A DNA stretch of 64,000 nt, taken from contig NC_061781.1 of assembly GCF_022458985.1 (NCBI RefSeq), positions 26,321,222 through 26,385,221 on the forward strand. Direction: 5' to 3'. This document shows positions 1-61,493 of the stretch, piece by piece. The position numbers and the translations under genes were made by a program. The notes under the pieces are model-generated. The model made no database searches, was not told the origin of the DNA, and worked only from the letters and a program-made list of their open reading frames with translations. The stretch comes from Mugil cephalus (taxonomy: Eukaryota). Positions within the stretch are counted from its first letter, which is position 1, and every line of letters begins with the position of its first letter.

Positions 1-1945
1 ATCCACGGCGCAAGAGGCAACGCTACTGCAGGTCCTTCATCCCAACGACACCCGTCTGAGGCAACAATGACACAAATAAATCAGCTTTTTTTGCACGTTT
101 TGTATCTTACACTGTAGAATGTTTTGCCTGCTTGTCCTGTCTGTGACTGGCCTTCCCACTTTTAAAACCCACCTTTTTACCGCAGCCTTTGGCTGAGTCG
201 CCTGTTTTGAGCTTTTATTTGTATTTAATTTACTGTTTTACTTTGGTTGTTATTTCATCTTGTTACACACTTTGGTTGGCCTTAGCCTTTTAAATGTGCT
301 TTATAAATAAAAGTGACAGTGATATATTCTTTTTTTGTATATTTTTTCAAATCCATTATTATTTTATATATATATATATATATATTCTTGTCCAATTCCA
401 CACTGCTGTGACAAGGACATTCCCTGTATGTGGGATAAATATGTTCTGTGTCTGCATGTGTTCTCCGATTGGCTGACATTGGGCTCCAGCCTCCCAACCA
501 CCCACCAGAGGACAAGAGGTCATAGAGGATGAGAATGAGACACCACTCATTTATCATTGCCATCATTGCATGGCATGTGCAGCTCCAGAGACCCCTCACC
601 CTTTAAAAGGAGGGTGGGTTATGATGGTTAAGCTCCATGTGCTCTGAAAGCTTTAGAATAAAAATGCTCCTGTCTCCAGTGTTTCAGAGTTAGTCCTCAT
701 AAAGAAGAAGTACAAGTGTGTCAAAAGTGAAATGGGGCAACTTTGACGTCTAGAGGGAAAAATATTTACGTGCTTGGTGCAACAGAGGATGTGAATAAAC
801 AGTGGGACGTGATGTTTGCAACACGCTGCTTCAAAAGAACACACTTCTTCTGAAAAGGAAGGAAGCTCAATAAAATATCACCACTTCCACTTGTGCTCCA
901 GTCATTTGACCACAGCTTGTTTTCTGTAGGAGATGAAGTGTGGCCGACACTAGATGGTGCAATAGAACAGAACCTAAAACGTCTGAATGAGAGCAGAACA
1001 TGTGGAACGGCTACTTCTTCTAATGTCCTGGTGTCGAGTTTTTAGCAGTTAAAGAAATAATCTTTGCACTGAAGGATCTAATGTGTTCACATTACAACAC
1101 AAAGTAGCTTAAGGGCAGTTTACCAAACATGACATACATTTTATTGACATTAATAGTAATGTAAGTTCCCGAACAGACCACAGAAATCAAGATGTGGCAG
1201 CAAAATTACTCTGGAGATTAATCAGTGAACCATTCGCGCCAGAATTTAAGCAGCGCCTCCTCGATAAACGGTAAAAAAAATAAAATAAATCAAATATCAG
1301 CCATTATCAAAAAGTCCAAACTAACACCTTCCTATTCACACTCTCACTTTTCACTTTTGGGTAGAGTCTGGTTAAGAGGGACGACCCTGACGAATTTCAC
1401 TTGGGCATCGAGTTCAACTTAAGGACACAAAAAAAAAAAAAAAGAAAAAGAAAAAGCAGAAACTGATTTATGATTTCAAAATGACAGCCATACCTCAACA
1501 TAAATTAAGAGAAGAAAGTGCATCAAGTGTTCAAGTAGGGTGTATAGTTTCATAGAACGGGAGAGGAGAAGGGGTCAGGTTGGTGTGTGAGGGAGGTAAC
1601 ACTGGCACAGAACAGGGAAGTTGCAAAAAAGATAGAGGACAAGGACTGAGGACGACCAAAGCTCAACCGCCAGATCTGATCTGTTCAAGAAGCCCTGATA
1701 ATAGTGCATCAAGTGGGAGATCATAATCACACTGTGCTGCTTACAGAGAGACCTACGCGCACTATGCATGACAAACAACACATTTAACCATGTTAGCCTG
1801 CAGATGCAGGTAGTCCCATATAATTCATGATTTTGGAAGCCAATGCAGGCTGTGATGAGGAGGGGGGGGGGCGGAGGTTAAGATGGGGCGGGGGGAACAG
1901 GGATGTCCATAGTCCACCCACATGATCGCCCCCCTAAGCCCGGTT

Positions 1946-6139
<4,194 letters not shown>

Positions 6140-7381
6140 TGTTTCAAGTCTCTTGTGGGGAAAATAAAATGATAATAAAACCCACTAACGTTACTGGTTC
6201 TCTTCCCGTCTATTAAACTCAGGGCTGCTACCGCGTTAGCTTCAACTCAGCTAACCGACTAGCCTGTTGCTAAGTGAACCTTACTTCACACACTTAAGTT
6301 ATTTTTTGTCTTGTAATCGTTTATAACCCAGTGTTTAAGGGCTCGGCTTCTTAATATAGTCGACCACGATGAAATTAACAACATAGACGTGTGTTTCAGT
6401 GGAGGCAAGAGTGGAAATGTAACTATACACTAGCCGTGTCTTAGCTACCTTCTTTTAGCTTCAAGGTACGAGTCTTTTGGCGTATTTCGTCATAATGGCA
6501 GCTGCATTCTTCACATAATATTAGTCAGAAGTTTGATATAGTGTAGGCTATGTATTGCAAACTGCATGGAGATAACCGTACAAGTATAAGGAACTGTTAG
6601 CTTTGTTAGCGCCAATGCTTTGTTATATATTTGTCTATATCTAGCTGTCTTGGACTCGTATAACGATGCAGTATTCCGGAAAACTTATATCAGATGCCCT
6701 GTATGTATCTCACCAAAGAACATCAAAGCCACAAAGCACTATTATTTAAAAAATAAAATAAAAAACTGTACAAACTGGTCACTACACGGCCTCTTTCAAC
6801 AATGCCCCCAAAACTACGTCAACGTGCACACACGCTACTGGTCTTGGCCGGTTCCATTACCCTTCAAAGGGAAGGGGTCCGAGTGTAAAAAAAATAAATA
6901 ATTAAAAATGTTGTGGGTATTATACGAGATACTTAGAATTATCATTGTTCTCAGTATATTGTAGCACCAAATGTACTGAGACAATTTGCCGCTTGTTTGC
7001 AGTTAAGGAAGAAAACGGATATTTATTTGGTTGTGGCGGTGATGGTTTGTACCAGTTTGATTCCCTTTACAAACAACGCGAGAATAGGGTGCACATGAGC
7101 CTTTAAAATAAACTGAATTTAGAGTCGTGATATTTTTTCTCACTAAAGTCGTACAGTTCATAGATTTAGTTATCTTTATGTTTTCTCTTCTATTATTTTC
7201 CATCTGTTTGCTTGTAGAAGTCATTGAAGTGGCTGGTACCAAACAAACATTTAAATGACTTGCAATCATCATTTATATGCTCTTGTGAAACACGGTCCAA
7301 TGTGTGTCGTGTATTTAAAGCTCATGTTTCATTCACAAACGGAGTGGATCTGAGTTTTTAGGTTAAAAAAAAATAAAAAAT

Positions 7382-7463
7382 CGTCACGAACAGGATTCGA
7401 ACCTGTGCGGGGAAACCCCATTGGATTTCGAGTCCAACGCCTTAACCTCTCGGCCACCGTGAC
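7382..7463 (-). tRNA. tRNA-Ser (anticodon CGA), 82 nt with a long variable arm
   Basis: The reverse complement reads GTCACGGTGGCCGAGAGGTTAAGGCGTTGGACTCGAAATCCAATGGGGTTTCCCCGCACAGGTTCGAATCCTGTTCGTGACG. It has a 7-bp acceptor stem (GTCACGG/TCGTGAC), a D-loop AGGTTAAGG, the anticodon loop CT-CGA-AA, an extended variable stem-loop (TGGGGTTTCCCCGCACAGG) and a T-loop GGTTCGAATCC. This is a canonical eukaryotic type-II tRNA-Ser. Confidence 0.9.
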
Positions 7464-8904
7464 TATACTCAAAAATGCCCAATTAGGAGCTTATGTAGGC
7501 ATTTGATGTACAGTGAGTCACTGCAGACAGTCGTAGAATAAGGAGTACGTCCGGACTTTCCTCATCTTAAAAGCCACATGCTCTTAGAGGTTTGTGTGTC
7601 TCTGCTTTTCCCTTCCTGCAACAGATCATTCAGGTGAGATACAACATGTTTCTCTGCTATTCTACAGTCAGTGCATCAAGTTAAATTACATCTTTTCATT
7701 TTCCCCACCAACCAGCAGTTTTCTCATTTTCACCCTTTAACCCCCTGAGATCCCGTGTCCTCATATGGGCACGTTAAGCTTTAGGTTTGTGGCAGCTTCT
7801 TATTCTGCTTCATTTACACTTTTGTCCTCATAACTATTTACCAGTTGGTGTAAAAAAAACATGATAGCGGTCAGTTCAGTGGATTCATTCTGCAGCCGAT
7901 CACGTAACAAAAGAGCAAAAATGTACAAAACCTCATCAAATCTTAAAGTCGTAAGTTATTAACTTTTCTAGTTTAAAATGACATGCAAACATGACAAATT
8001 CTATCAACAGTAACAGCCACAACTTCGCTAATTAGCAAATACTCGTTTGAGGACATTGGGATTTCATTATTCTATCTTTTCACAGCCATGCTCAGGTTTA
8101 TATTTTGTTGCATACTGATCCCAAATACCTTGGAGAAATTAAAAATGCTTACCAAAGTAAAGCTCAGGTCTCAGGAGGATAAACAGGAGGCCCATAATGA
8201 TGAGCACTGTTTGCAGGGCCGCTCCACCTAATTCAGTAGAGAGTTAGCACAGAGTAAACGTATTAAATTACAACCAAAAACAAGTAATAAGAATAAAAAT
8301 AAAAATAAATAACCTGCTGCAGCTTGCATTTTCATCACTTGGCTACTGAATTTCAGCACAGTTTCAAACCTGATAAGACAGCAGGACTAAGCACCAGCAG
8401 CAGCAACTGCGTCAGTGGTCGCACAGTTGTTAATACTAGTTTGGACTATGGTAAAAATACATTTTCAACTCGACCAAACATAATAATGACGTGATGAAAC
8501 TGAAATAAAACACCAAATCAGACCGGACATGCAGGCAGAGATGATAACTGTGCAGAAAACTAATGAAAACTCATGACAAACATAAACAGCGCAGATGCAG
8601 TGCGCATTAAACACGGTGAAGCAGAAAAATGTGCTAGCGAGCTAGCGCAAATAAAACGTCTTCACACAAAACGGCGTAATGAAAAAAATGGCACAACCTA
8701 ATGTTACCTTTATATTGCAACTTCCTCTTTTCCTCCTCGTTTCTTCTCTTTCGGGCTCGCACGGCCTTTACATCTCGTAAATAAGAAAAACCTCACCTGC
8801 CTGTGACCTGAGCTCTGCTCCGTCTGACCCCGAGGTCTCACCCGTCATGTGACTCAGCAGCGCCACATTTTAGGGACAATCATTGATTATTTATTTGTTA
8901 ACAT

Positions 8905-9600
8905 TTGTCATTTTCAAGAGAGAACACGCAAAGGAGGGCGACTGGGCACAGAAAAACATTTTTATTTTTTATTTTTATGGTTTTCAATTATAGTTTTTTC
9001 CTCGAGGCCAAGGGTGTCTGGCGGCGCCCCTCCAGCAGGTGGCGCTCTAGGCGACCGCCTATATCGCCTATGCCAAGAGTCGGCCCTGACTGTGGGATAA
9101 TGTGCAAGGTCAGACAACAGCATAGTGAAGGAAGCAAACAATTTTGCAAGAACCACACCATCCATGCTGCATCTCAGCAAGCTGCCGTCACCTGGCTCGT
9201 CATAAATAAAGGTTCAAGAACCTGTGAAAACTTTTACAACTGTCTCCGTGCAACAGTGGGTGGGAGGCTTCTCCCACTACGCTGGAGGACTGAGAGGTTC
9301 AGGAGGTCCTTTGCCCCCACAGCCATCACACTGTACAAGGCCACTGTTTAAATGCTTTAAGTCTAATTTGTAAATTGTTCAACTGTACATAGTTTTCACA
9401 CAGTAATTCATATTAACATGCTGGTACAGCCCATACATATATATACTCCCACATATATCTACATATTTCTCTTGCACTGTAGATTGTGGTGATTTTGTTG
9501 GTGTGTTATGTTGATGCCTGTGTATGTTTGTGGACAAGCTACTGGACACTTGAATTTCCCAGGGGATGAATAAAGTATTTTATAAAGTATTCTATTCTAT
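8905..9600 (+). mobile_element. Transposon-derived ORF remnant plus repeat tail. It is a common teleost interspersed repeat.
   Basis: The ORF ends ...LPLRWRTERFRRSFAPTAITLYKATV. It is followed by the widespread fish repeat tail ..cttgaatttcccaggggatgaataaagtattttataaagtattctattctat. I recognise the motif FRRSFxPxAIxLY as recurring in fish repeat-encoded ORFs, but I cannot assign a family. Confidence 0.35.
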
Positions 9601-9720
9601 AGTCAGCAGATTGGATTTTGGAATTTTTAAATTAACAGATGGCTGGCGATGTGAAAGCAAGCAATGTAGGATTGAGTCAGTTTCAGTTTAGCCCTACAGT
9701 TGCCATCTGTGCATGTGAAG

Positions 9721-9732
9721 AAGAAGAAGCAG

Positions 9733-9762
<30 letters not shown>
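9721..9762. repeat. (GAA)n microsatellite
   Basis: gaagaagaagcagaagaagaag... is read directly from the sequence. Confidence 0.9.
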
Positions 9763-9763
<1 letters not shown>

Positions 9764-11693
9764 CCCTAACTGACACGATTGACTGTATATGAGTGACACT
9801 AGTGACACCTACTGAACATCCTAGTGCAGACGTGTCACCAATCAAACTTAATTAGACTTAGACTTAATGATATGTCCATTACTTTGCCTTTAAATTTGTT
9901 ATTAAGGGAAACTGCCTTGAAGAAGTATATAAATGTTAATATTAAATCTTACCTGTAGAGCGGATTCAGAGATGTTTTCAGGTTTGTGGTCATTAATGTG
10001 TCTTTAGAGAACCACTGATCAGAAAAAGAAGGTTCATCTGAACTACATCAACTATCTGGCTGTTAACAGACACTAGTTAAAGTCTAAGGTGAGAAAACTC
10101 AATTATCTTTGTTTTATCTTTATCACCATAATTAGACCAATAATATATAATTGTACAAGAACAAACACATAAAAACTAACAGCCGTCACTTTTTAAAACA
10201 GGATGTGATCCAGAGTTTTCTGAAATGTTCTCATGGTTCTATTCCAGCATCCAGCACATACACATCCACTCCTGGTGTCATTGCCCTCATTAGTTTCACC
10301 TGTGTCTTGTCATTGTTGTGTATTGATGTGCTGAAGAAAAGAAGAGATCACAGCTGACAAGTCCCCTCTTGCATTTAAAAAGGCTTTATTACAAGAAAGA
10401 AGACCGTCAAAAACTCTTGTCGAATCTGAGAGAGCTTCTGGTCCCATTTGCCGAATCCTCTCTCTTGTTCAGCTCCAACAGTCTCTTACATATATATATA
10501 TATATTCTCATCCCCAAGAACCCCACATTTATCAACAAAGGAAACTTGTCTTCTCACGTCTGGTAATTTTATGAGCCAACTATAAAAAGTAACTTAAAGA
10601 TAAACTGGTTAATCTTTACACCACGTACACACTTCACAAACCCCAAAGCAGGAAGAGGGATAGGATCATATACTACATCGTCCCTCAGTCCTTATGTGTG
10701 TATATATAGTCCTGCCTTTCCCTTTGTTCTCTGTTGCGTCATTTTTGTCCCCATCATCCTGTCTCTATGTCCTTTTGTTTTGTAATCCTGTCCCTCACCT
10801 TCACCATTCCTGACAGAAATATCAGATAAACATCCAAAAGGTTTTAGATTCCAATGTTGACTCAGTGGAGTCTATAAACAGAAACACATCTATATGCTGA
10901 GTGAGTGAAACTGAACACTGGCTGCATCACTGTGAGTAGAATGTGTTTTAGTTCATGTTTCGGTTGAACATGTGGTTTATTCTGCAGCATTTATCTGAGT
11001 CAGAGTCTCTCTACACACAAGCTGCTGCTGCTTCAACCTCTGGATCATCAGGACACAGCTCATCCTCTCTCAGCTCACATACCGTCCTCTTCACAAACAT
11101 CATCACCTCCATCTGTAGAGAAGAAAGAAGAGAGGAGATAAATGAGCTGTCATTCATCAGCTGTCAGTCAGTGATGCAGCTCATCCAGTATAAAGAGCAG
11201 CAGGGACTTCTGTCCTGTTCAGAGCAGCACTGGAGCAAATATATACAAATGTGATGAGTGGACCTCTGTAGAAAGAGCACATGGTTACTAAATGTAATGC
11301 TGCTTCTGTGATGTGCAGGCTTCAGTCAGACTGATCTCAGAGCTGTGATCAGTTGTTGATCAGATGTGATGAATGACCACCACTGTCTCTATACATCTTG
11401 GAAGGCTGTCAGCTGGAATCCAGCTTTATTTCCTGGACACATCAACACAACAACAGCAGTCGTCTTCACATCAACTCAAACACATGATCACAACAAGCAT
11501 CTGGCTCATCTGATTGGCTGACTGTTGTCTCTCTCTCTGTCTTTCTGTCCAATCCTGAAGCCTGTCTCCATTCTCCTCTCACAGCTTCACTGAGAAGCTG
11601 CAGGTTTACAGGAAACACTGGATCTTTGATACTAACTGTGTTTAGGAAGATACTGATGAAAGCAGCATGGACTGACTGGAACCGTCTACTCAC

Positions 11694-11867
11694 CCCAGAG
11701 TCTCCAGTTTATAGTCTGGACTCTCCACAAGATCAAGAAGCTGCTTCACTCCTGAATCCTTCAGGTTGTTGAATGTCAGGTCCAGATGTTTCAGATGGGA
11801 GGGGTTGGACTTCAGAGCTGAGACCAGAGAATCACAGCTGATCTCTGACAAACTGCATCTCCTCAAT
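11694..11867 (-). other. NLR leucine-rich-repeat exon, 174 bp, a tandem duplicate of the exon at 12386..12559
   Basis: It encodes [58 protein letters not shown]. The flanking intron sequence (aataaagaataaaagatgtagattaaa) is shared with the upstream unit. Confidence 0.7.
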
Positions 11868-12385: not shown

Positions 12386-12559
12386 CCCAGAGTCTCCAGT
12401 CTACAGTCTGGACTCTCCAGAAAACCACACAGCTGCTTCACTCCTGAATCCTTCAGGTTGTTGTAACTCAGGTCCAGATGTTTCAGATGGGAGGGGTTGG
12501 ACTTCAGAGCTGGTCCCAGAGAATCACAGCTGATCTCTGACAAACTGCAGTCAATCAAC
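12386..12559 (-). other. NLR leucine-rich-repeat exon, 174 bp
   Basis: It encodes [57 protein letters not shown], with a ttcag acceptor and a gtcag donor. Confidence 0.7.
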
Positions 12560-13626: not shown

Positions 13627-13800
13627 CTCAGAGTCTCCAGTCTACACTTTGGACTCTCCAGTCCACCAGGTAGATGCTCCATTAATAAATCCTCCAGGTT
13701 ATTATTACTCAGGTCCAGCTCTGTCAGATAGGAAGGGTTGGACTTCAGAGCTGAGGCCACAACTTCACAGAGAGTTGCTGAGACGCCATGTCCAGATAAT
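13627..13800 (-). other. NLR leucine-rich-repeat exon, 174 bp
   Basis: It encodes ..[57 protein letters not shown], with a cacag acceptor and a gtcagt donor. Confidence 0.7.
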
Positions 13801-14869: not shown

Positions 14870-16663
14870 CGAAACTTTCTGCAGTTCCTCACAGCTGGAA
14901 TCAGTCTCCGTCGTCCCTCATTTGATGTGTTGTACTGATCCAGGTCCAACTCATCCAGAACCTCCTCTGACATCTGCAGCATGTAGGCCAGAGCTGAGCA
15001 GTGGATCTCAGAGAGTTTCTTCTCTGATCTTTTCTCTGACTTCAGGAATTCTTGGATCTCCTGATGAACTGAGAGGTCGTTCATCTCCATCAGACAGTGG
15101 AAGATGTTGATGCTTCTGTCTGGACAGATTTCCTCAGCATTCATCTCCTTCAGGTTCTTGATGGTTCTCTGGATGATTTCTGGACTGTTCTCTGTCTGAC
15201 CCAGCAGACCTCCTAAGAGTCTGTGGTTGGACTCCAGAGAGAGGCCATGAAGGAAACGAACAAACAGGTCCAGGTGACCATTTTTACTCTCCAAGGATTT
15301 AATCATGACTCTGTTCAGAAACTCATCCAGAGACTTAGCAGCGACCTGGTGGTCTTTCCCCAGAAAGTCCTTCAGCACCTCTGTCTTCTTGTTGGTGTAA
15401 CAGTGGAACATGTAGACTGCAGCCAGAAACTCCTGAACGCTCAGATGAACAAAGCAGTAGACTGATTTCTGGAAGATCACACTCTCTCTTTTGAAGGTCT
15501 CTGTACAAACTCCTGAGTTCACTGAGGCCTCTGTCACATCCAGACCACAGCGCTCCAGGTCTTCTTGGTAGAACATGATGTTTCCTTCCTCCAGATGTTC
15601 AAACGCCAGCCTCCCCAGCTTCAGAAGAACTTCCCTGTCAGCCTCCATCAGCTCCTGTGGACTCGTCTCATGTCCCTCATGGTACTTGTTCTTCTTCCCC
15701 CTTGTCTGAACCATCACAAAGTGTGAGTACATGTCAGTCAGGGTCTTGGGCAGCTCTCCTCTCTGCTCTGTAGTCAACATGTGCTCCAGAACTGTAGCAG
15801 TGATCCAGCAGAAGACTGGGACTCACACAGGATGTGGAGGCTCCTGGAGGTCTTGATGTGGGAGATGATTCTGCTGGACAGCTCTTCATCACTGAACCTC
15901 CTCCTGAAGTACTCCTCCTTCTGGGCGTCAGTGAAGCCTCGTACTTCTGTTACCCTGTCAACACATGTAGGAGGGATCTGATTGGCTGCTGCAGGTCTGG
16001 AAGTGATCCAGACCAGAGCCGAGGGAAGCAGGTTCCCCGTTGATGAGGTTTGTCAGCAGCACATTGACTGATGCCTTCTGTGTGACATCAGACACAACCT
16101 CACTGTTGTTGAAGTCCATGAAAGTCTGCTTTCATCCAGGCCGTCAAAGATGAACAAAAGTTTCCAGACAGCCAGCTGCTCTGCTGTGACCTTCTGTAAT
16201 GTTGGATGGAAAACATGGAGCAGCCTGAGAAGACTGTACTGCTCATCTTTGATCAAGTTCAGTTCCCTGAACGAAAGCACAATCACCACACTGACATCTT
16301 GGTTTTCCAAACCCTCTGCCCAGTCCAGAGTGAACTTCTGCACTGAGAAGGTTTTTCCAACACCAGCGACGCCGTAGGTCAGAACCAGTCTGATGTGTCT
16401 CTGTTGGTCAGGTAAGGCTTTAAAGATGTCGTGGCACCTGATTGGAGTGTCATGGAGAGCCTTCATCTTGGAAGTTTTCTCAAGCTGTTTCACCTCATGT
16501 TGGGTATTAACCTCTTCACTCTGTCCCTCTGTGATGTAGAGCTCAGTGAAGATCCTGTTGAGGAGGGTTCCTCTTCCTCTTACATCAGTTCCTTCAGTCA
16601 CACGTTCACATCTCCTCCTCAGACTGATCTTATGTTCATCTAAAACCTCCTGGAGACCAACAT
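14870..16663 (-). pseudogene. FISNA-NACHT exon of the NLRC3-like gene, disrupted by at least 3 single-base frameshifts between about 15790 and 16110
   Basis: Two long minus-strand ORFs, 16053..16682 (Walker A) and 14866..15780 (NACHT C-terminus/helical domain), lie in different frames, and the 270 nt between them has stops in both. Following the conserved NLR sequence through the gap (..[26 protein letters not shown].. / ..[68 protein letters not shown].. / ..[19 protein letters not shown]..) requires -1, +1 and -1 shifts. In functional fish NLRs this region is a single ~1.8 kb exon. Confidence 0.7.
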
Positions 16664-17139: not shown

Positions 17140-17375
17140 TTTGTCCAGTGCTGCTCTGACTGGCTGTCTGCAGTCCAGGTCTTGTTGTGGATCTTTGTCC
17201 ACACTGGGGACAGGAGGAGTGTCCTGATGAAGCAGACTGGTCCCAGTATGAGGTGATGCACTGTCTGCAGAACCAGTGTCCACAGCTTTTAGAGACTGAA
17301 TCCTTCAGGACGTCCTGACACAAAGCACAGCAGGACGGCTGCTCCTCCACAGAAACAGGACTCCTCTTCCTCTCT
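17140..17375 (-). other. RING-like zinc-finger exon of the NLRC3-like gene (phase 2 to phase 1)
   Basis: It translates to KERKRSPVSVEEQPSCCALCQDVLKDSVSKSCGHWFCRQCITSYWDQSASSGHSSCPQCGQRSTTRPGLQTASQSSTGQ. The acceptor is tgttgacag and the donor is gtaagact. Confidence 0.7.
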
Positions 17376-17638: not shown

Positions 17639-17758
17639 TTTGTGTCTGAGGGTCCAGGTTCTTCACTGAATTTTATAGGTTCTTCTCTGGACCTGTCACT
17701 CTTCATAGACAGACATCTGGATACTGTAGACTCTGGTCTCTGTCTGTGGTACTGACCT
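17639..17758 (-). other. Duplicated 120-bp N-terminal exon of the NLR gene (symmetric phase 2-2)
   Basis: The acceptor is ttttgcag. The exon encodes GQYHRQRPESTVSRCLSMKSDRSREEPIKFSEEPGPSDTK and the donor is gtaag. It is near-identical to the 3' half of exon 1 (18108..18244). Confidence 0.65.
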
Positions 17759-18925
17759 CTGCAAAATCAAACACATTTTATTCTCATCAATCACTGATAA
17801 ACTCTGAGATAAAAGTCATTTCAGTAGCAGTAAACACACTAACTCCAGCTATTGCAGATAATGAGATGGTTTCATGTTTGTAACAGTCTCTGAGATTAGA
17901 TTCCAGCTTTTCTAGGAGACTGACAGCTGTCAGAGAAGCTCAGAGGAAGACAGGACTCAATATTTCTATTTGAGCCATGAAATCAATTCAAATATATCAG
18001 CAAATATATTGTAGTTAAAATGAATCAACCCTCAGGGACAGAAAATATACTGGAACAGACACAACTGATTTAAAATGAGTCATAAATGAGTTAGTAGCTT
18101 CTCTTACTTTGTGTCTGAGGTTCCAGGTCCTTCACCGAATTTTATAGGTTCTTCTCTGGACATATCACTCTTCATAGACAGACATCCGGATACTGTAGAC
18201 TCTGCTCCATCCTCCTCTTCTTCCATCTTCTGGACTTCAGTCATTCTGAGGTAAACCAGTAACACTGAGTTTACATCAACTTCAGTTCCAGTCAGTTTTC
18301 TCCAGTCACTTTATTTCTGGTCAAACATATTTTCACTGGAGACATTTTATTGAAACACAACAATGATTCAGCCGGTTCATGAATCCTGGCTGCTTTCTCT
18401 GGATTTATTTTAGCTTCACACTGTCAGTGCAGCTCATTCTGATCTATAATATTTAATGTCAGCTACCACAGCTCAGTGTTAACATTATACTGAGCTACAT
18501 TCTCCTAGAAACAATGGAAGTGAAACACAGAAGAGTTTCTCTCCAGTTTTCACTAAACAACAGTCAGTGTTTTGCTGCTTCTTGTTCACCATGAGAACAT
18601 TGTTCCACTGTTGTCCATATAGATTATTTATTCTTGTTTATTTTAAATAAATCAATATTTTTTCAACATGCACCATCTGTGAATAATTATCCACTGTTTC
18701 CTGTTATGTTAATGTCTTGTAAAGCTGCTCACACTCTGAACTGAGTCTTGTTGTCATGTTGAACCCAAAACTGATCCAACCTGCTCTGGTCAGTCAAGTT
18801 CAACCACAGCCCTTTGTGTCGAAGACTGGTGTGACCTTTAGTTATGAAATGCTAACATAATAGTTGTACTTTCGTTTTTACTAAAACTAAAGAAGTTTAG
18901 ATGTATTTGTCCAGTGCTGTAATAA

Positions 18926-19169: not shown

Positions 19170-19297
19170 TTTGTGTCTGAAGGTTTAGATTCATCACTGA
19201 AGTCTGGAGGATGAAGTCTGGACTCTTCATAGACAGACATCTGGATCCTGGACACTCTGCTCTGTCCTTCTTGTCCTCCTCTAATGGAATTAGTCTG
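19170..19297 (-). other. Third, diverged copy of the NLR N-terminal exon (possible alternative first exon or relic)
   Basis: The same flanking intron sequence is present (ttctcttactttgtgtctga...). The coding part has changed to ...CLSMKSPDFILQTSVMNLNLQTQSK, so the frame and content are altered relative to the copies at 18.1 kb and 17.7 kb. Confidence 0.4.
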
Positions 19298-22230: not shown

Positions 22231-25200
22231 ATGGCTCTGTTCGAGAACTGCTCTTTGCTGCTGGAGCTGAAATATTTATCGTACAAGGAGAAGAAGAAGG
22301 TTCAGTTGGCGGTGACAGAGAACGGGGGCAACATTGCCTTTGTGGTCAATAAACAGGTCTGAGATCCAAGGCGCCATCATTGTTTTTGCGGCGTTCTGCA
22401 AACCTTCCCCTCCCTCCTCTTTATCCATGTATTTCTGCCTACGTTTCCCACAGTGCTCTCTGGTAGTGACCAGCGATGTGGCCAACCTGAGCTCCAACAG
22501 GCTGCGCAGCATCCACAAGCACCAGATCCCTGTGGTCGGAGTGGATTACGTGTACTGCTGTGTGGAGAGAGGAGTCCGTCTGCCTGTGGACGAATACAAA
22601 CTGGACACGTCCTCCACTTCAACGCTTCCTCCTCCTCCTTTGTCTTCACCAAAGAAGACTCCACGTCCACGTCAAGGTCAGTCCTCGCTGATGGTTTCAA
22701 GACACTTATGTACTAAAAAAAAACACAAACAAAAAAATGTAGGAATTTGGTTTGTGCACTTTACTGTGAAATCCAAAGCAGAGCTGCACCCACTCCCACT
22801 CAGTGACTCATGACTCCTCTGAGATTATTTTTAAGGCCTCACACAAGTCTTGTGTTTCTTATCTTGTCAACACACATGTTGATTTGTGGCCCTTCACATG
22901 AAATGGACCCATCCTGCAGGTTTAACCACACAATCTGCTGCAGGGTGTGTTTGCTCATGGTGTGTGTTCACTTGTGAACCACGGTACAGGTTTTCTTTAG
23001 ACCTTTACCTCCAGCGTGTGGCTTCACTGTGAGATTTTAATGTGTCCTGTCTTGTCTTTGTGGTTTTTAAAGTGTCTGTGATCCATGTGGTGGATGAGAC
23101 GCCTCAGAGGAACGAGGCTCCGCAGAGGAGTGGGAATGTCCTGGAAAAGTTCAGGTGAGGAAAGAGGGAACGTTAGCGAGTCACATTAGACCTGGAGGAC
23201 CATGTAGTCTGTGAAGAGTCTCTGCCCCCGTTCAGACCTCACGTTAATCTGGTCTCAGTCCACATGTGGGGGTGGTCTGGGACACATGTGACCTCATTCC
23301 TTCAGTTAGTGTGATCACACAATGAGTCCTGGTCCCATTAAAGACCAGCTACTCAACAGGAGAGGAGATGAACTCATTCATTCTTAACCTGAATAAGTGA
23401 CGTCTGCTCATTAGTGATAAGACTTTTAAGAGATTATAGTTCATTTCAAACTGAACTAGAGACTAATCTGAACTAGAACCAACTGATTCTGAGCTTTGTC
23501 TCTAAAAGAACCAGTATCAGAAATAAAGAAGAACTTCTTTAATGATCACCCAGTACTTTTTTTTTTATCTTGCTTTTCTTAACCTTTGCCCAGGTCCTTT
23601 GACTTATTAGTAATAGTATTAAAATGATGTGAAGCCTAGAAGCCAGGCGAACTTTAACTTTTTAGAATCTCTCTGCAGAGCCCAGACAAACACTTCATCT
23701 GAGCGCTACGACTGGTTGCAGAACCATCCAGATGATACAGAGACATTATTTGTATCTGAATCTGGTTACACCTGGAATTAATCTGGAACTTTCAAAAGTT
23801 TTTTGTAAGAACAGAGCTGCCAGCATTCATCATTGATTACAGTGGTAATATAAGAGCTCAAAGCTCCAGACTCTGGTAGATCTCTGCTTTCATATCTCTG
23901 TCACATGCTGGTATAAAAACTGCAGTGAACTAACAGTTCACTTGTTTTGCTTCTGTACTGAACTTGCAAGTCAAAAAAAGAACAAAAAAACATACAAAAT
24001 TTCACTCATCTTTGTTCACCTGTTGTTCAATCTGACAGGATCTACTCTGAAACTGATTCCAAACTTCCATCGTTTCCTGATCGTTTTCACGTGGCCAAGT
24101 ATTCGATCTATGAGAAGGTGAAGCTGCTCTTCATTTTATTCAGCTTTGTACGACTCTAGCGCTGGAAGAACTGCTGCAACATGATTTCCCATATTTCTCT
24201 GCAGAGAAACAGCTGGTGGGTACTGGAGCTGCAGAGCTCCACAGGAGAGAAAGGACGTCAGTATCGGGTGGTCAGGTACTGGAAGGAGGATGCTGGAGCA
24301 CAGGTATGAAAGCTTTACTGTTGTACTGCAGCTTTAAATGTGTTGTAACTGGAGTCAGACTTTTAAGGACCTGTTTAAACTGGAGCTGTTTTTATTAATC
24401 TCTATTAACGAAAGGGATATTTTTCCTCTGTTATTATTCCTTTGTTATTAAAAAGACTGGTGTTTCTATTAATCTCTACTTGTGTGTTTTGTCTTTTCTT
24501 CTTCTTCTTTTTTATATTTATATTTTTGCCAGTACTGCCACTCCACTCCACATCAAAGTGATTTACTGCAGCACTTCAGATTTGTTTTTCCCAGCGTTAC
24601 TGCTGCTTCGATCGCTTCCTGATTTCACAAATAACGATTTGGGCCGAGGTCATAAAACAGAACGACTCTAAAAGGACTTTGTTTTAGCCTTGACAGCCCT
24701 AGTTTAAACTTGTTTCTCCTCTAGACCTAAAGCTCACATTTTGTTGTAGTCTGCCGTAAAAGTAAACTGAAACCAATATGATTTTCACTCAACATTTAGA
24801 CCGAAAACCAACATTTTTTGTCAGGTGCTAAACCTGAAATAAGGGTTGCACATTTTTAATTTGAGTCAAATAAAAAAGTGATGTGATTTTTTATGATTGT
24901 TGATTTGTGAAGTCTGAACACTTAGAACATTGTAGCACACTAACCCGTCACATATCTGTGTCCGTGCCGACAGAAGGCGGCGGTGAGGGACATGCAGGTG
25001 TTTCTGTCCAGCTCAGAGGAAGCTCTGGAGGTGTACCAATCCCTCAGAGACTCGCTGGAGGCTTCAGGCCTGCAGAAGAGGAGCTGCGTCCCCCCACAGG
25101 CCAAGAACCTGGGCTCTGCCCCCCTCCACCAGGTCAGACACTCTCACTGCACGTGATGTTAACAGATCACATTCTCTGATGAGTCTCAGTGAAAACAACG

Positions 25201-28200
25201 AGAAGTCAACTGTGTTTGAACGGACATGTGTTCCTAATATTCTGACATTTTAAGCTCCACCTTTCTGGCTCTGATTCTACATCAACTGAACATTAGATCA
25301 GTCAGCAAGTGAGATTCAAAACATCTGAAAATACATTTAACACATTTCCCCTCTGTATGACCCATGTAGATCTAAGCTTGATAAAGAACAGTACAATAAT
25401 AAGACTTTCTATATTTCTGAAGCTTAAATGTCTGTAACTCACCATGTCTCAGTATATTTTAGGACTTTCATTTTAAGGAGTTTTTTTTATTGGCGTTTAG
25501 CTGGTTTTAATAAGATTTTATTATTTTTATTTATTTATACAATATGTTCAATATGCTCTCATGCCCCTTGGATTAGTAGCTCTTTCATATTTCTATGTTT
25601 TTTTCCAAACTGGTTTAAACTAAGATGCCAGAATATCTTGATTCCTGCCTTAAACTGCGTAAAATAGTGAGACTTTTCCTGTTCTTTCACATGGCAGCTT
25701 CTGTTGGAGGAGAAGCTGAACACAGGACAGTTATCTGAGGAGGTGGGCGTGTTTGTGGAGCTGCTGTGGACCGAAGCCCTCGGCTGTCTTAACGACATCC
25801 TCAGCGTTTCCATCGACAAACTCAGCATCAATGATGTAAAGATTTCTCCTAGGACTGTTCTGGGAAATATCAGCTATAGGTTTGTGATCTCAGATCACTA
25901 GAATCACGTCTGTCTCTGTTTGTAGGTGAGCAGGGCCGAGGGCTTGTTGCTTCAGGCTCAGAAGAAGCTGAGGGACAACGATTATGAGGCGGTGATTTCT
26001 CTCCTGGGGGAGTTTTACACGCTGCTGCCACACAAAAGACAAAACTTACATCCCGAGGCCAAACTCATCTCTCAGAAACTGGATCTGTGTCAGGTAATGC
26101 ACATATCCGCTGTTGCATTGGAGGCACTTGTGTAGGTTTGTATTCAATGCTGCATGAATCACACACATCTGGACAATGAAAATGCCCAGTGAAATGATGC
26201 AGAATGAACCAGCTGTTGAGACAAATTCCTCCACAAAGTTTAGGTAAAAACCTGCTGATGATCCACCTCTGCTCTCATGTGTCCTTATTTATGATGTGGA
26301 GCTACAGTCATGCACCCGGTCTGAAGTCTCATGTTGATAAGCACTGACACAGAGATATTTTATCAGAGCGATCTCACGCATTGTCCCACAGCGTAAACTA
26401 ACACAATGGTTGTGATCCTGCAGATAGACACACAAAGAACAGATAGTCCTGTTTTGAAAGGGAGTTTTAAATTTAAACTGATTGAGGTGAGTCAGGATTC
26501 GTTCGCTGTTGATGTCTCATGAAATTAATTAAGAAGCTTTAAAACATTGGACCAAATTCCCCCCAAATCTAAAAAAATTAAACTCTCAAAACATCAATCA
26601 GTCAGAGCCATTTAGTTAAAATAAATAAAATGATATAATCCTTTAATTTATCGCTCTTACTCTTCTGTCATTCACCACATTAAACCCAAATGATTCCATT
26701 GGCCCAGCGGTTCATTTTCCTCTGGATTCTGTGGAGTTAGAGAAGCAGCTCTGGGACCATAAGGTCACTGGTTCACATCCCTCCATGTGTTCTACTTGAA
26801 CAAGCATTTCCTGGAGGCTACAAAGGGGGCAGCATACACTGCTGTGTGAACAAACGAGTGGTTCAAGAATAAATTTCCCCACGAAGGAAATAAAAACGCT
26901 GGGTTCAGATTGAAAGAAAAAAAATCAACTGTTCACATTGTGAAGTAATTCAAATAATTTCTGAATTAAACGCTGTATTGAATTATTACTGAGTCAACAC
27001 ATTAGTTAAGATTAGACAGAACTGATCTGCACATGAGAGAGAGAGAGACTTTCTGTGTGGACTAACATGAACACAATCTGCTCCGTCTGTCAAGTTAATC
27101 AGAGACGTTGTGAACGTGAGTGAGATGACTCTGAGGAGCCCGGCCCCCTCCTGTGTGGGGAAGTATCGCGCACTGAGGTGCAGCATTGAGCCTGTTCCCT
27201 CCAACAGCTCCGAGTTTCAGGCCGTGAGAAATCTGCTGCAGGGCAGGTACTTCAATCTACTGATTATCATTGCAAATAACATTCAAATCTTAATGTGTTC
27301 CATATAGGCCACATCCATCCTGTATATGCTTATGCAGCCATGTTTCTGTTTGTGTGTTGCAGTAAAGTGCAGATCCAGCAGATTGTGCGTGTCAGCAGAG
27401 GAGTGGAGCTTCAGACATTTAAGAGCGAGCTCGGGAACATTAAGCCTCTTCTACATTCCTCCAGCCCCAGCAACTTTGTGGGGATCCTGTCTCGGTGAGA
27501 TAAAACACGAAGAAAATACTCAAACCTTCTAAGATCAAACAGGAAACTCCTGATGAAAGATCAGGGGCCTGTTTCTACCTACAGCTAAAGCACATCCTGC
27601 AGCATTTCTTTTCTGCTAATCTAGTCTGTCTACTTTGACTACTCACTCCAGTTGGTAGATTAATGCTCGGCTGCATTGTCCCACCATCAGGCTCCTAGCG
27701 TAGCACCCTGGGAGGAGCTGCCAGGACGTCACAAAGCAGACCACATGTCAGCTGATAATTATCAAACTAGTAATCAGAGGAAAACCTGATCTTCTAATAA
27801 CCAGGCCACCATGTGACCTATTTGAACCCACCCAGAAATTGTTGCTGATTAATTCCATGTGTTTGTGCAGACAAACTAATGACAGTGTGTACATGTACGT
27901 ATTGTATATGCTTCAGAGGCCGGCCAATGTCTGAACAAATAGTAAATGCATGCTGTGGGCTTTAACGTTTCCTGCAGCAGCTTCAGAGCATAGTTTAAAT
28001 CATTTCATCAGTATTTGACGCCGTGGGTCGAACCGTAAAGAAACCTGACGTTTGTTTTTCAGCTCAGTGTTTTTGACTTCTCTCTCTTTTTCTTTTTAGC
28101 GGCCTGCTGCTGCCCCGCGTTGGAGTGGAGCATCATGGGATAGAGAGAACAGACGTTGGCAATCTGGGCAGTGGAATCTACTTTGGTGACACCATGAGGT

Positions 28201-29856
28201 TAGTGGACCGCCTCAGATGGTGGGTTTATCAGCAGGTTCCTTTGAAAAAGGAACAATTTTAGATGTAACTGCCAGTGAGTCCTTCATGTTTAAAACTTAC
28301 TTAGTAAATCAAGCTTTCGAAGTCTGATTGCGTCCTCTGTGTTTTCCATCCACAGCACCAGTTTGAAATATTCCAAACCCAGCGTGACGGACGGCTCTCG
28401 GCTGCTGCTGGTGTGTGACGTGGCACTGGGACGGTGCAGGGACGTCCACCAGAGAGACACCACACTGACCCAGGCTCCTGAGGGACACCACAGCATGCAC
28501 GGGGTCCGGCGCACCGCTAACGCTCAGTCTGACTTTGAGGTAAGACCACACAGACCAAACAGTTTGACTGATTTTAATCAGTGATATTAACGTCGATCAG
28601 CAACATCTTTATCTTTGTGTTCTCCAGGATGATGAGTATGTGGTCTACAGCACTGACCAGGTGAGGCTGAAGTACGTGGTTCAGTTCAGCATCGAGGGAG
28701 ACCAACGGAAGGACTTCAGTCCCGACATCAACACATCGGCCGAGCTGTGTCTGCCCCCGTCCAGCCAAGGTGAACTGTCCGGGAAATTTCTTGGTATTTT
28801 TCAAGCTCGATATTTGAAACCAGAAACAAAAACTGAAATCTTTTATTCTCTAGTCTAAAACAAAACAAAACAGCTGGATTTTTCCTTGATTGAAGCAGGA
28901 AGTAGTCTCCACGGTGAACTCTAAATAAACCTGGTTCTTCTTCCTGGTTCTGACCAGATATCTTGTGTCAGAAAGTCTAAAATTCCATCTGAATATTGTT
29001 CCGTGCTCCGTTGAGATGAACAGAAATCACTGACTGATGGAAACAACTTATTCTTCTTCACCTACAAAACTGTCAGTTTTTTTATGAATCAAATAACAAC
29101 TCGTTTCTGTTTTACTCCCTTGGTTTCGTTTTTCATAGATTAAAACCAAACTAAAAGGAAATGTACTTGTTTAGCATGAAAACTTTATTTAATTTTATTT
29201 TTTATTTTTCTCTACAGGCACCATCTTAAACTGTTCCTGCACCCATTTTTTTTTTTTACTTTTACGGATATGTCAAATTTTAAAGTACTACACTCTGAAG
29301 TCAAATAACTTTGTCTTGCTACCAGTCACATGACTGCAGAAACTCTTTGTGTGTGCAGACTTTGGTTCGGAGGATAATGGTGTGGAACATGTTAAAAACC
29401 CTATGGAGGATGTGAAGGCCGGACTGTTGAACAGCTCTGGTCAGCAGCTCCCTCTGCAGGCCGTCCACGTGAAGTGCAAACTGATGGATCTGCTGTCCCA
29501 GGTGAAAAATAAACAGAAGATCTTCTTTCTGTTGTCTGTTGTTGTCCGATGTTTACTGGATCACACCTCGAGATGGAGGTCTGACAGCGGGTGTCTCTCC
29601 CCCCTCTCTAGGTTGTCATTTTCCAGAAATACACCAATCAGAGCTCTGAAGCCATCGAAGCGAAGTATGTGTTCCCTCTGGATGATTCTGCAGCCGTGTG
29701 TGGATTTGAGGCTTTCATCAATGGGAAACATGTGGTTGGACAGGTAACATGTTTTAACATTTCTATTTTTGTGTTTAAAGTAAGTTTGTTTGTGATGCTC
29801 CTGGCCAGTTGCATGGTCAGGGGCGGGGCTTAATGTGGCGTGGGACAGACGATGCC

Positions 29857-29893
<37 letters not shown>

Positions 29894-32800
29894 GGAAACA
29901 GAAAGAATAAAAGGCAGCAAAAAGGGTCACAAATAAAGATATATATATACACAAAGAAGAAGAGTAAGCTTCACAGTCCTACACACCATCTGAGCACCCT
30001 AGAGTTGAATTACTTTAGCGCTAAATGTCTTTGATTGGTTTCAGTTTCCTTTTTCACCACCTCATAATAAAAATCCAGGCTGCTTGTAACCTGACTCTTA
30101 TTCTGACAGGAGTTAAGTGTAACTGCACCAGGCTCGAGTGGATATGTTCTCATTGCATCGTACTATACAGCAAACACCCTCCACTGGTGCAGAACCAGAG
30201 TGACTCTCTATCTTGTGTGTGTTTGTGTCTCAGGTGAAGGAAAAGGAGAAGGCTCGCAAGGAGTACAAACAGGCTATAGAGAAAGGCTACGGAGCCTACC
30301 TCATGGACCAGGATGCCCCAGTATGTGCATCCACCTCCAACCTCTTACTGGTGGTTCTCTGCATCAGAACACTTTTAATGTTTGATCTCCCTGCAGGACG
30401 TGTTCACCATCAGCGTGGGCAACCTTCCGCCCGGTGCCACCGTCCTCATCAAAATCACCTACGTGTCCGAGCTGATGGTCAGGGACGGCAGTATCCTCTT
30501 CTCCCTGCCAGGCAGCGTGGCCCCGTGGCAGGAGAGCGCCGCGCTCAACCAGACCACTCAGGTGAGGTTCTTAAGAACGTATTAAACAGAGACGGACTTC
30601 ATCAAGCTTTCTTTGTGTGAATCTCAGGAGGTATAATAACCTGAGGCTAGCTGTGTTCTTAGTGATCTGGTTCTGTCAACAGGTCACTGTGGAGAAGGTG
30701 TGTGTGACTGACAAGGAAGCCGGCAGAAGGTGAGCTTCATTATGCATCCAGATTTTCTACCGAGCTTCTGTTTCTCTTTACTTTGACCTGTTTTCTAATG
30801 GGTCTCGATTCTTACGTCTCCTTGTTAGCTGAAAGCGTTAGGAGCTCATGAGGCATTCTTTATAGCACACTGGCTTCTACCAATCTGCAGCACTTTCCAA
30901 ACATGGTGGACCAAATAAAAAACCATCAAACTGTGGAGCAAATACAGATTTGATTTATTCCCAGTTTGTGCATATTGCATATTGATTTCATTATGAGACA
31001 AATCTTTCCAGGAGCTGATAAGATGAGGCCTTGGTGTGTTTGAAAGGATTTTTCTATATTCGTCTGGATTGAGGAGGAAAACTCTGCCACCCGTCCTTCT
31101 TATTCATGTTTTGATCAATAAAGTCAAAGTGGGAGAACCTCTTGTGCTGATATACTGATGTTTCGTGCTTCCAGTGTTTGCTGATGTGTTCATGTGCTGT
31201 TTCTTTTCTACCAGAGAGTTCACCTTGGACGCGTCGGTGGAGATGCCCTATGAGATCTCCAGCCTGCAGTGTGTCACTCACAAAGTCAAGATGAAGGTGT
31301 TTGGATTATTTCTAAATATTTTATTATATTTTATTTTATTAGTTTTTCTGGAACTCAGGACGAACACAAAAGTTTAACTCTTTCCAGATGATATTTCTTG
31401 TAATTATTAAGCAGCATTTTCTTATATTTATATTTGGTTTTTATATTATGAAGTGGAGTCATTGGAAGAAAGTATTAATTACTTGGGGATTTAGTCATTT
31501 TCCTCTTGTCATGTTTATGATTTGATGTTTTGTGATGGCACAGAGAACCGACTGTAAGGCTGTGGTCAGTGTGCTGCCAGGAGAGGTCCTGGGTCCGGAC
31601 GGTTTCCAGCTGAACATCACTCTGTCTGAAGTCCATCTACCCAGGATGTGGGTGGAAAACCACCCAGACAAGGACAGCCAGGTCTGTCTCTTCCTTTTTC
31701 AAAAACTAAACTAAAGTCCCTAAACTTCAGTCCTGTCACCTTGGAACAAGTTTTTATAAGGTTATTCAAATATATGTTTATTTTATCTCAGTGTAAAGCA
31801 ACATTTATGTTCACATCAAATTTGAGGTTCTCGTCTAAAAAGGTGCCTAGATATTTATATGAAGCAACCTTTTCTACCAGTTCACCACTGATGATGCCTG
31901 TAGCTGTGTGTTTGTTGCATCTAAAATCAGGAGTAGTTTTGGACACATTTAAGTCTAAGTAATTACTGTCACACCGTGAAACAAAAACAAGAAGAGCCAT
32001 GTCTCTGTGTCCTGATTCGGGTCCTTGAAGGAAGGACAGCAGCACAGTGTCATCAGAAAAGTCGATTAAATAGCTGCCTTCTTTCACACTCCTCCATTCA
32101 CCCGTATTCAGGATGAAAGGGAAGAGCTGAACCTTGTGGTGAACTGGTGGACAGAGCTAAAGAGTTTGAGACACAACCATTTACAGAAAAACCCTTTCTG
32201 TTAGTTAAAAAGTCAGACAACCATAAATCAACTTGGTGGGACACGTTAAAATCACTCATCACGTCTCGCTCTCTCCTCCAGGCCTGCATGTTGGTTTTCT
32301 ATCCGAACTTTGAGGTCGACTCCGGCTCAGCAGCCGATGAAGTCATCCTGTTGCTGGATACGTCTGAGTCCATGAGAGGAGAGTCTCTCCAGGAGGCCCA
32401 GAGAATCGCCCTGCAGGTCCTCAAAGTCCTCGACAACAACGTCAGACTCAACGTCATTTTGTTTGGCACGGGTCAGTTAAATGGTTAAATAGATTGAGTG
32501 TTCCAGCACTTCATCTTTTATTAGCCGAGTATCATTTACATGAGATATGAGCATTAAATCAACCAGTGGACAAGGACTGCGTGCTTTGAATAACTCAAAT
32601 GTAATCTGTTCTTTAGTTCCTCAGTTATTTAGCAAAAGTGAGAAATAACAGTAGTCAGTAGCAGTTCCACTTTGTCAGTGGTAGTGTTTCTTATTTCAGG
32701 TCACACAGATGCTTTCCTGACAGCAAAGCCACTGTCTGAAGTTCATCAAGCTGCTCGGAGCTTCATCAAGGTGAGTTACCTTTCCCTCCTGTCAGACTCC

Positions 32801-35665: not shown

Positions 35666-35696
<31 letters not shown>

Positions 35697-55584: not shown

Positions 55585-55899
55585 ATGGAGATCCTGCATG
55601 AAGCTGAACTCTGCTTTCCACTCCTCCTCAACACCTCCTGCAGGAAGACGCTGAGGCACCAGACACAAATCATCCTTTATATCCTGCTGTCCTGCATCTC
55701 TCTACTCACTGTGGTCCTCAACCTGCTTGTCATCATCTCCATCTCACATTTTAGGTATGAAATCACCCAAACCACAACTCTTTTTCTTCCTTCACAGAGG
55801 TTTACTCAGTGGGCTCTGGGGCAAAAGAGATGTCATGCAATATTAAAAATGATCACTCATGTGATGACTTTTACAATTGATATATGACTATATCTGATA

Positions 55900-55956
<57 letters not shown>

Positions 55957-56780
55957 TCAGGCAGCTCCACACCCCCACCAACCTCTTCCTCCTCTCTCTG
56001 GCTGTCTCAGACTTCCTCGTTGGCCTCCTCCTGATGCCGATTCAAATCCACGTTTTAGAGGGCTGCTGGGTTTGGGGAACTTTACTTTGTGTACTCTCTA
56101 ACTACATCGGTTTTATCCTTACATCCGCCTCCGTAGGAAACATGGTGCTGGTATCAGTTGACCGATATGTAGCTATCTGTGACCCATTGTGTTACCCCAC
56201 CAAAGTCACTCAAAGCAGAGTTCAGATCTGTGTTTGTCTGTGTTGGATCTGCTCTGTGTTCTACAACAGTGTGATGCTGAAAGACTTTCTGAAAGATACA
56301 GACAGATATGTTTCATGTTATGGGGAGTGTATAATTGTAATTGACTTCATAACAGGAGCTTTTGATATTGTATTGACCTTTTTTTGCCCTATTGCTGTCA
56401 TCATAGTTCTGTATCTGAGAGTGTTTGTGGTGGCTGTGTCTCAGGCTCGAGCCATGAGGTCTCATATTGCAGCTGTCACTCTACAGGGTTCAGGTCATGT
56501 AACTGCAAAGAAGTCTGAGAGAAAAGCAGCTACAGCTATTGGTGTTGTAGTGGTTGTCTTTCTGGTCTGTTTCTGTCCTTATTTTTCTTCTTCTCTCGCA
56601 GGTCAGAACATTTCAACCAGTGTGGAGTTTTCTGTCTTTGGGTTGTGGTTACTTTATTGTAATTCTTGTCTTAATCCACTGATCTATGCTTTTTTCTACC
56701 CCTGGTTTCGGAGATCTGTTAAGCTCATTGTTACACTTCAGATATTGCAGCCTGACTCCTGTGACGCCAACATATTCTAG
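55585..56780 (+). CDS. Trace amine-associated receptor (TAAR, class-A GPCR), clade-III-like. It has 2 coding exons, 55585..55754 and 55961..56780, giving 329 aa.
   Basis: The protein reads MEILHEAELCFPLLLNTSCRKTLRHQTQIILYILLSCISLLTVVLNLLVIISISHFR|QLHTPTNLFLLSLAVSDFLVGLLLMP...SVDRYVAICDPLCY...FFCPIAVIIVLY...CFCPYF...YCNSCLNPLIYAFFYPWFRRSVKL. It has 7 TM segments, DRY, C3.25, the CFCP motif (TM6) and the TAAR fingerprint NSxxNPxxYxxFYxWF in TM7. The intron has a GT donor (|gtatga) and an AG acceptor, and is filled with (TTTC)n. Confidence 0.9.
55891..55958. repeat. (TTTC)n microsatellite filling the intron of TAAR copy 1
   Basis: tttctttctttc... runs up to the AG acceptor at 55960. Confidence 0.95.

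Positions 56781-61422: not shown

Positions 61423-61493
<71 letters not shown>

Follow-up and report, generated by a model that had tools for sequence, protein, structure and literature searches.

Three clustered single-nucleotide indels in the NACHT exon of an NLRC3-like gene of Mugil cephalus: assembly artefact or young pseudogene

The minus strand of the window, i.e. the whole stretch of 64,000 nucleotides analyzed here, harbors a gene of nine exons whose model displays a RING-FISNA-NACHT-LRR architecture (Table 1). All eight introns are bounded by GT and AG and their phases are consistent, as ascertained by a splice-site check of the gene model, which bears out the view of a preliminary description of this DNA that the exons flanking the NACHT exon are intact; with the latter repaired as detailed below, they join into an open reading frame of 963 amino acids. 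Exon 1 encodes the first 24 amino acids of the M. cephalus protein P0008 with 100% identity, and exon 2 shares 89% identity with the same protein (tblastn). The RING finger of exon 4 is recognized by the Pfam models zf-C3HC4_4 and zf-C3HC4 and by related RING models (E 4.5e-10). Exon 5 is 1794 nt long as assembled and would measure 1795 nt if intact. When its repaired translation was compared to Pfam, FISNA (PF14484, residues 11-82, E 3.9e-28) was found directly N-terminal of a full-length match to NACHT (PF05729, 1-167/167, E 1.4e-31), and NOD2_WH (E 8.7e-19) and NLRC4_HD2 (E 3.4e-32) share this single exon with NACHT. The preliminary description is also borne out in its placement of the Walker A motif (GVAGVGKT, 16373-16350) and of the ends of exon 5 (16663 and 14870). 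The C-terminal LRRs are encoded one per exon and in the same phase, each 174-nt exon ending 2 nt into a codon, and exon 6 has diverged further than any other exon. The protein would end on GWR, which is typical of the family, as the paralogues end on RWR, GWK or RWE.

Table 1. Features of the NLRC3-like locus (positions in the window)
Feature	Position	Strand	Description
Exon 1	19170..19240	-	Starts at ATG (MSVYEESRLHPPDFSDESKPSDT.); donor GT; splice sites checked
Exon 2	18108..18245	-	N-terminal repeat peptide exon, 138 nt, AG/GT
Exon 3	17639..17758	-	Second N-terminal repeat peptide exon, 120 nt, AG/GT
Exon 4	17140..17375	-	C3HC4 RING finger exon, 236 nt, AG/GT
Exon 5	14870..16663	-	Large FISNA-NACHT-winged helix-helical domain exon
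Walker A / P-loop GVAGVGKT	16350..16373	-	Direct sequence reading
Walker B region LLFIFDGLDE	16131..16160	-	Direct sequence reading
Frameshift 1	16117..16119	-	One base missing between A16119 and T16118; in LDESRLS[L]DFNN
Premature TGA	16053..16055	-	In entry frame after frameshift 1
Frameshift 2	16039	-	Extra C before GGGG run; in LTNLI[K]GNLLPS
Frameshift 3	15823..15824	-	One base missing inside variable codon 281; in SLHILC[G/A]VPVFCW
Exon 6	13627..13800	-	First LRR exon, 174 nt, AG/GT
Exon 7	12386..12559	-	Second LRR exon, 174 nt, AG/GT
Exon 8	11694..11867	-	Third LRR exon, 174 nt, AG/GT
Exon 9, coding part only	11103..11112	-	A-TGG-AGG-TGA; C-terminus ...LETLGWR and stop; phase set by exon 8

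The best database matches of exon 5 are fish NLRC3-like proteins, with eleven M. cephalus paralogues at 88-93% identity over this exon and other percomorph fishes at about 85-87%. Together with the Pfam domains FISNA, NACHT, NOD2_WH, NLRC4_HD2 and RING, these matches uphold the earlier assignment of the gene to the NLRC3-like family. A B30.2 (PRY/SPRY) module was sought within the 11 kb downstream of the gene, where the minus strand of positions 1-11100 holds no open reading frame of B30.2 size, and a SPRY domain is likewise absent from the Pfam listings of the mullet paralogues, which end on RWR. Since the zebrafish NLR groups 2b and 4 also do without B30.2 (PMC4852459), its absence is compatible with membership in the NLR-C family. 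Judged from its sequence, this Mugil cephalus locus belongs to the NLR-C (NLRC3-like) family of teleosts and is structurally complete. Among the NCBI matches, no protein is about 100% identical to the NLR of the window, and the locus hence appears to be without a protein model.

Exon 5 carries exactly three 1-nt indels, which span about 294 nt. In a three-frame translation of the minus strand, the conserved peptide runs from frame 0 through frame 2 and back to frame 0 before it continues in frame 2. We employed a purpose-written, frameshift-aware protein-to-DNA alignment against the M. cephalus paralogues P0004, P0005 and P0008, each of which returned the same three events and none further in the region. 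Elsewhere in exon 5, the alignments to the second and third of these paralogues also contain a few whole-codon differences. At the nucleotide level, exon 5 was aligned to the intact NACHT exons of Anabas testudineus (L001) and Siniperca chuatsi (L002), to which it is 91-92% identical, and this alignment contains exactly three 1-nt gaps. The placement of the indels thus agrees at the same bases in five independent references, which is far beyond chance. Hence, the comparison to intact NLRC3-like NACHT exons that the preliminary description had proposed as a check, made with the species' own paralogues as protein and with the DNA of relatives, recovered its three indels in type and in place.

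The final conserved motif ahead of the first frameshift is the Walker B region. At frameshift 1, the intact exons of L001 and L002 read TCA-CTG-GAC (S-L-D), whereas the window reads TCA-TG-GAC and the C is absent. At frameshift 2, intact ATC-AAG-GGG-AAC (I-K-G-N) stands against ATCAA-C-GGGGAAC in the window, and the protein alignment places the insertion at about 16032-16039, with the two deletions at about 16117 and 15823. At frameshift 3, the window reads TGT-G.A-GTC, where the paralogues would have GGA (Gly) or GCA (Ala) if their codons are as we assume. The 1-nt deletion that had been claimed for this third site is indeed there, but the peptide HIMCQIPVFCW given for it is the type of other species, the mullet type being HILC[G/A]VPVFCW. 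According to the alignment with L001 and L002, none of the three sites is a change in homopolymer length: a C is lost from CACTGG, a C is gained before GGGG and a base of a variable codon is lost. The earlier caveat that the indels might be homopolymer errors is thus not supported.

As assembled, the product is truncated at 391 amino acids, just past Walker B, by the TGA at 16055-16053. The three shifts had been called compensating, which we cannot maintain, since they sum to -1 and this TGA lies between the first two of them, so that functional rescue by the -1/+1 pair is ruled out. Alternatively, the gene could be functional as assembled if the shifted segments were removed or bypassed by cryptic introns, alternative splicing or translational recoding. 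A search for frame-restoring GT...AG pairs yielded 1272 combinations with a stop-free product; this number is at the level expected by chance for a 1.8-kb exon, however, no pair is convincing in its acceptor context, and any such intron must cut at least 233 nt (16055 to 15822) out of the NACHT core. Moreover, the segments between the shifts encode the exact family peptide in the shifted frames (122/122 against P0004) and align gap-free, as exon, to the intact exons of two other species. Since the family peptide is kept and the segments align as exon, they are coding sequence and not intron, and the cryptic introns that had been named as a possible escape from the pseudogene diagnosis are rejected. 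We know of no NLR that uses programmed frameshifting. Taken together, we give splicing or recoding hardly any credence.

The exon was repaired by inserting N for the two missing bases and by removing C16039. The repaired open reading frame comprises 2892 nt and 963 codons, starts with ATG and has a single, terminal stop. Across the whole model of the repaired gene, no nonsense codon, lost splice site, larger indel or insertion was found. We further aligned the repaired exon 5 with 120 homologues to look for signs of relaxed constraint. At columns that are at least 95% conserved, it deviates in 6 of 377 cases against a homologue median of 3; of the eleven intact mullet paralogues, six have listed values of 8-12. 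The NACHT exon displays no excess of changes at conserved columns and no relaxed constraint. Private substitutions of the window copy in exon 5 include F39, L93, G323, T390, K545 and F598. An older, decayed pseudogene is ruled out by these conservation tests and by the intact gene model. Exon 6 carries C5H, L7V and S39L at positions that at least 90% of the homologues keep, which places it at the top of the range of intact genes and is the only, weak hint of decay.

Residues 171-295 of the repaired exon encompass the three frameshifts and, the three broken codons aside, are identical to P0004 in 122/122 positions. Among the eleven M. cephalus paralogues, amino acids 101-300 of exon 5 contain 9-16 variable columns per 50 amino acids as compared to 19-27 at the ends of the exon, and all three indels fall into this block, which is the least variable of the paralogues at the protein level and is 94% identical in nucleotides even to fishes of other genera. 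The block has only three columns that are commonly polymorphic, and one of them is codon 281, which is Gly in seven paralogues and Ala in four; frameshift 3 removes, if the codons are as assumed, the exact base by which paralogues with Gly (GGA) differ from those with Ala (GCA). By our own calculation, the probability that three points placed at random on a 2892-nt coding sequence span no more than 294 nt is about 0.03.

Other genes of the window served as a control. PARP4 (22231-42172) was compared to full-length PARP4 representatives from the 50% library; aligned to P0267, its exons, about 25 in number, are free of frameshifts. An apparent frame change in PARP4 at 30320-30397 is not a lesion and turned out to be a normal GT-AG intron of 78 nt. 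Exon 2 of both members of a TAAR13c-like tandem pair (61493-62311 and 55956-56777) is 100% identical to P0146 and P0147, which identifies the window as M. cephalus DNA, and both TAAR genes are intact. The M. cephalus proteins P0146 and P0147 share a chromosome of 27,784,759 bp with the NLR paralogues P0004, P0008 and P0014.

The preliminary description had read the interrupted exon as a recently inactivated receptor. Disabling lesions in an otherwise intact assembled gene are confirmed by our analysis, but inactivation in the fish is not established by them. The indels may be present in the fish, in which case the gene would either have turned into a pseudogene very recently or be represented by a null allele that segregates in the species, and we regard this as a serious possibility that falls somewhat short of an even chance. 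Translation would then stop at the premature TGA and leave a RING-FISNA fragment of 391 amino acids. The 50-55-nt rule of nonsense-mediated decay is established, and as the premature stop lies four exon junctions upstream of the last, the mRNA would probably be removed by this pathway. Such a reading is favored by the protein and nucleotide alignments, in which the frameshifts are real features of the sequence, and by the other coding sequence of the window, which is without frameshifts and speaks against an assembly that is generally error-ridden. In addition, the indels are not homopolymer-length errors, and C5H, L7V and S39L lie at conserved positions of the first LRR exon. The lack of a protein model among the NCBI matches would be expected if the annotators had called a pseudogene, but an artefact would give the same result. 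Dead copies are also to be expected in this family, since NLR-C families are large and show rapid gene turnover and copy-number variation (PMC4852459; PMC11192531).

Several properties of the indels do not agree with this reading and lead us to favor an artefact instead. Under neutral decay, lesions would be expected all over the 2.9-kb coding sequence, mixed with substitutions and with indels of other sizes, yet only 1-nt indels are seen, and these within about 294 nt, for which the clustering alone has the low probability given above. Three independent neutral indels should moreover bring several-fold more substitutions with them, whereas the 125-amino acid block of residues 171-295 has 0 amino-acid changes against P0004, the conserved columns of exon 5 show no excess of changes, and the gene is free of nonsense codons, splice-site losses, larger indels and insertions. 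All three indels lie in the paralogues' least variable block, and the third one hits a base that distinguishes Gly from Ala copies, which is not predicted by random mutation and is what a consensus of mixed copies tends to give. It had been argued earlier that three indels within 300 nt speak against sequencing error; the clustering, the restriction to single nucleotides and the lack of accompanying substitutions point the opposite way. Overall, a local assembly error accounts for the pattern somewhat better than genuine death of the gene does.

The published reference assembly is of a kind in which such errors can be expected, as it was built from noisy long reads and polished with short reads only. 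In the literature that we found, a single chromosome-level M. cephalus assembly is described; it was assembled by wtdbg2.5 from PacBio Sequel II CLR subreads of more than 30 kb, and its polishing by POLCA relied on Illumina reads alone (PMC9247318). Given 100% protein identity, the window presumably comes from this assembly, although it might derive from a more accurate one. According to its authors, wtdbg2 performs a single consensus round, has a lower accuracy before polishing than other assemblers, so that polishing is needed, and is not heterozygote-aware (bioRxiv 10.1101/530972). [quoted passage not shown] The other M. cephalus assembly that the literature search turned up likewise started from noisy reads (ONT Flye with Racon, Medaka and Pilon; PMC12382950).

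We thus lean towards the view that the three indels are a local consensus or polishing artefact of a noisy-long-read assembly. Because amino acids 101-300 are nearly identical among many paralogues, reads of different paralogues or haplotypes could have been mixed in a single-round partial-order consensus, and a mixed consensus would leave 1-nt indels, especially where the copies differ. We infer that correct short reads would subsequently align better to the error-free paralogues and leave the damaged copy uncorrected, and a polisher that needs at least two reads with the alternative allele, at 2:1 over the reference, would then never repair it. Some observations stand against an artefact as well. 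Three errors in 300 nt exceed the assembly's claimed accuracy of 99.99% about 100-fold, and the rest of the window, i.e. PARP4, the TAAR pair and the three multi-copy LRR exons, is clean. Homopolymer-length changes are the commonest residual PacBio error, and the three sites are not of this type. Furthermore, at least eleven paralogues were assembled with the block of amino acids 101-300 intact, and the deviations of exon 6 at three conserved positions hint at some decay.

Alternatively, the indels could be real and stem from one event, for example an aberrant gene conversion between paralogues or error-prone repair, which we consider improbable. Such an event might leave 1-nt indels at or near the differences between donor and recipient, and frameshift 3 coincides with the Gly/Ala base. 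If this were true, an NLR that is otherwise under constraint would have acquired a null allele very recently, and this allele may still be segregating in populations of M. cephalus.

If the indels are an assembly artefact, the real gene encodes an intact receptor of 963 amino acids that would work like its paralogues. In proteins of this family, the NACHT domain oligomerizes in a nucleotide-dependent manner, the LRRs have regulatory or sensing roles and the RING finger acts as effector. Both leading explanations are known phenomena and the finding is ordinary either way. It carries little biological weight, as frameshifted copies are expected in a large NLR family with fast turnover and residual indels are expected in assemblies of noisy reads. 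It does call for caution, since unpolished indels in that part of the NACHT exon which is invariant among paralogues may inflate counts of intact versus pseudogenized NLRs from such assemblies. Where a locus shows clustered 1-nt indels but is otherwise free of decay, the reads should be checked before it is called a pseudogene.

When compared to assemblies made with wtdbg2 and POLCA, the indels resemble the residual errors that we would expect there, as they are single-base indels without substitutions in a stretch in which short reads can probably not be placed uniquely. They differ from typical errors of this kind in that they do not affect homopolymer runs and in that their local density is far above what the claimed genome-wide accuracy allows. 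Within M. cephalus, the closest counterparts are P0004, P0005 and P0008, with which the window copy shares 92-93% identity over the repaired NACHT exon and the same organization of RING, LRR and tail; their NACHT exon is open, whereas the window copy carries three 1-nt indels in this exon and appears to have no protein model. Among characterized systems, the gene is most readily compared to the zebrafish NLR-C / NLR-B30.2 family, in which FISNA, NACHT, winged helix and helical domains likewise lie on one large exon and the remaining modules, i.e. the N-terminal peptides and each LRR, lie on single exons (Howe et al. 2016, PMC4852459). In contrast to the zebrafish family, the mullet subgroup possesses an N-terminal RING finger and no B30.2 exon was seen for it, and the NACHT exon of the mullet copy is frameshifted as assembled. 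The zebrafish family consists of many near-identical paralogues whose NACHT exons are homogenized by gene conversion (PMC4852459), and the same process would account for the uniformity of the block of amino acids 101-300 in the mullet paralogues.

We compared the NACHT exon of the NLRC3-like gene (exon 5, window 16663-14870, minus strand) with the intact NACHT exons of Anabas testudineus (L001:1806-3604) and Siniperca chuatsi (L002:3036-4831), and found 91-92% nucleotide identity across the three fishes. Nei-Gojobori estimates for all three species pairs yielded a dS of just 0.13-0.15 and a dN/dS of 0.45-0.59. Alignment of the introns surrounding this exon was lost 25-45 nt past the splice sites in Mugil, Anabas and Siniperca. 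For percomorph fishes this distantly related, such a synonymous divergence seems far below expectation, in a comparison that covered this gene alone. The low synonymous divergence hence suggests that this exon is subject to constraint at its synonymous sites or else follows another unusual evolutionary mode.

The most divergent exon of the NLR gene is the first LRR exon (13800-13627, minus strand), for which the top identity among 120 homologues searched was 75%. Two of its substitutions, C5H and S39L, remove the conserved cysteine of the LRR and the DSG-motif serine, respectively. Judged from these sequence comparisons, the first LRR exon provides the sole hint of relaxed constraint within the NLR gene. 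At the 3′ end of the gene, the +1 frame of the last exon (window 11112-11014, minus strand) is 100% identical to the 33-residue end of P0004 (MEVMMFVKRT...AAACV), the NCBI model of an M. cephalus NLRC3-like paralogue. Since most paralogues, as well as the phase of the window gene, read this exon as ...(G/R)WR*, the tail of P0004 looks like a wrong-frame annotation or the product of a different splice donor.

Further genes and reading frames recognised in the window

Feature	Position	Strand	Remarks
PARP4 (vault poly-ADP-ribose polymerase) gene	22231-42172	+	~25 recognisable exons
Ser/Ala/Pro-rich ORF, 258 aa	38031-39198	+	inside PARP4 span
C8 + ZP-C domain exons	~46500-50000	-	Pfam
TAAR13c-like olfactory receptor gene, first copy	55585-56777	+	exon 2 match to P0147
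TAAR13c-like olfactory receptor gene, second copy	60969-62311	+	exon 2 match to P0146

The PARP4 exons encode BRCT, PARP catalytic, VIT and VWA domains, and the gene is intact when compared with the full-length PARP4 protein P0267. The 258-aa ORF, with a Ser/Leu low-complexity ORF ahead of it, contains an internal duplication in which TxExGSGFQFGALFGSS... is present twice, and a Pfam search with it returned no match; it could represent either a repeat or the part of PARP4 that varies at the C-terminus. An exact exon-peptide search found no M. cephalus PARP4 protein, which is odd given that the genome is annotated.

The minus-strand exons at ~46500-50000 matched C8 (PF08742, 1.8e-18) and ZP-C (PF00100, 1.3e-14), and are part of a tectorin- or zonadhesin-like gene of the VWD/C8/zona-pellucida type. 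The two TAAR13c-like genes lie in tandem, and in each the coding sequence is interrupted by an intron just past transmembrane helix 1; in the first copy this intron ends in a TCTTTC-type repeat. Their second exons are 100% identical to the NCBI M. cephalus TAAR proteins P0147 and P0146, respectively, a match that established the species of the window, and share 95% identity with each other.
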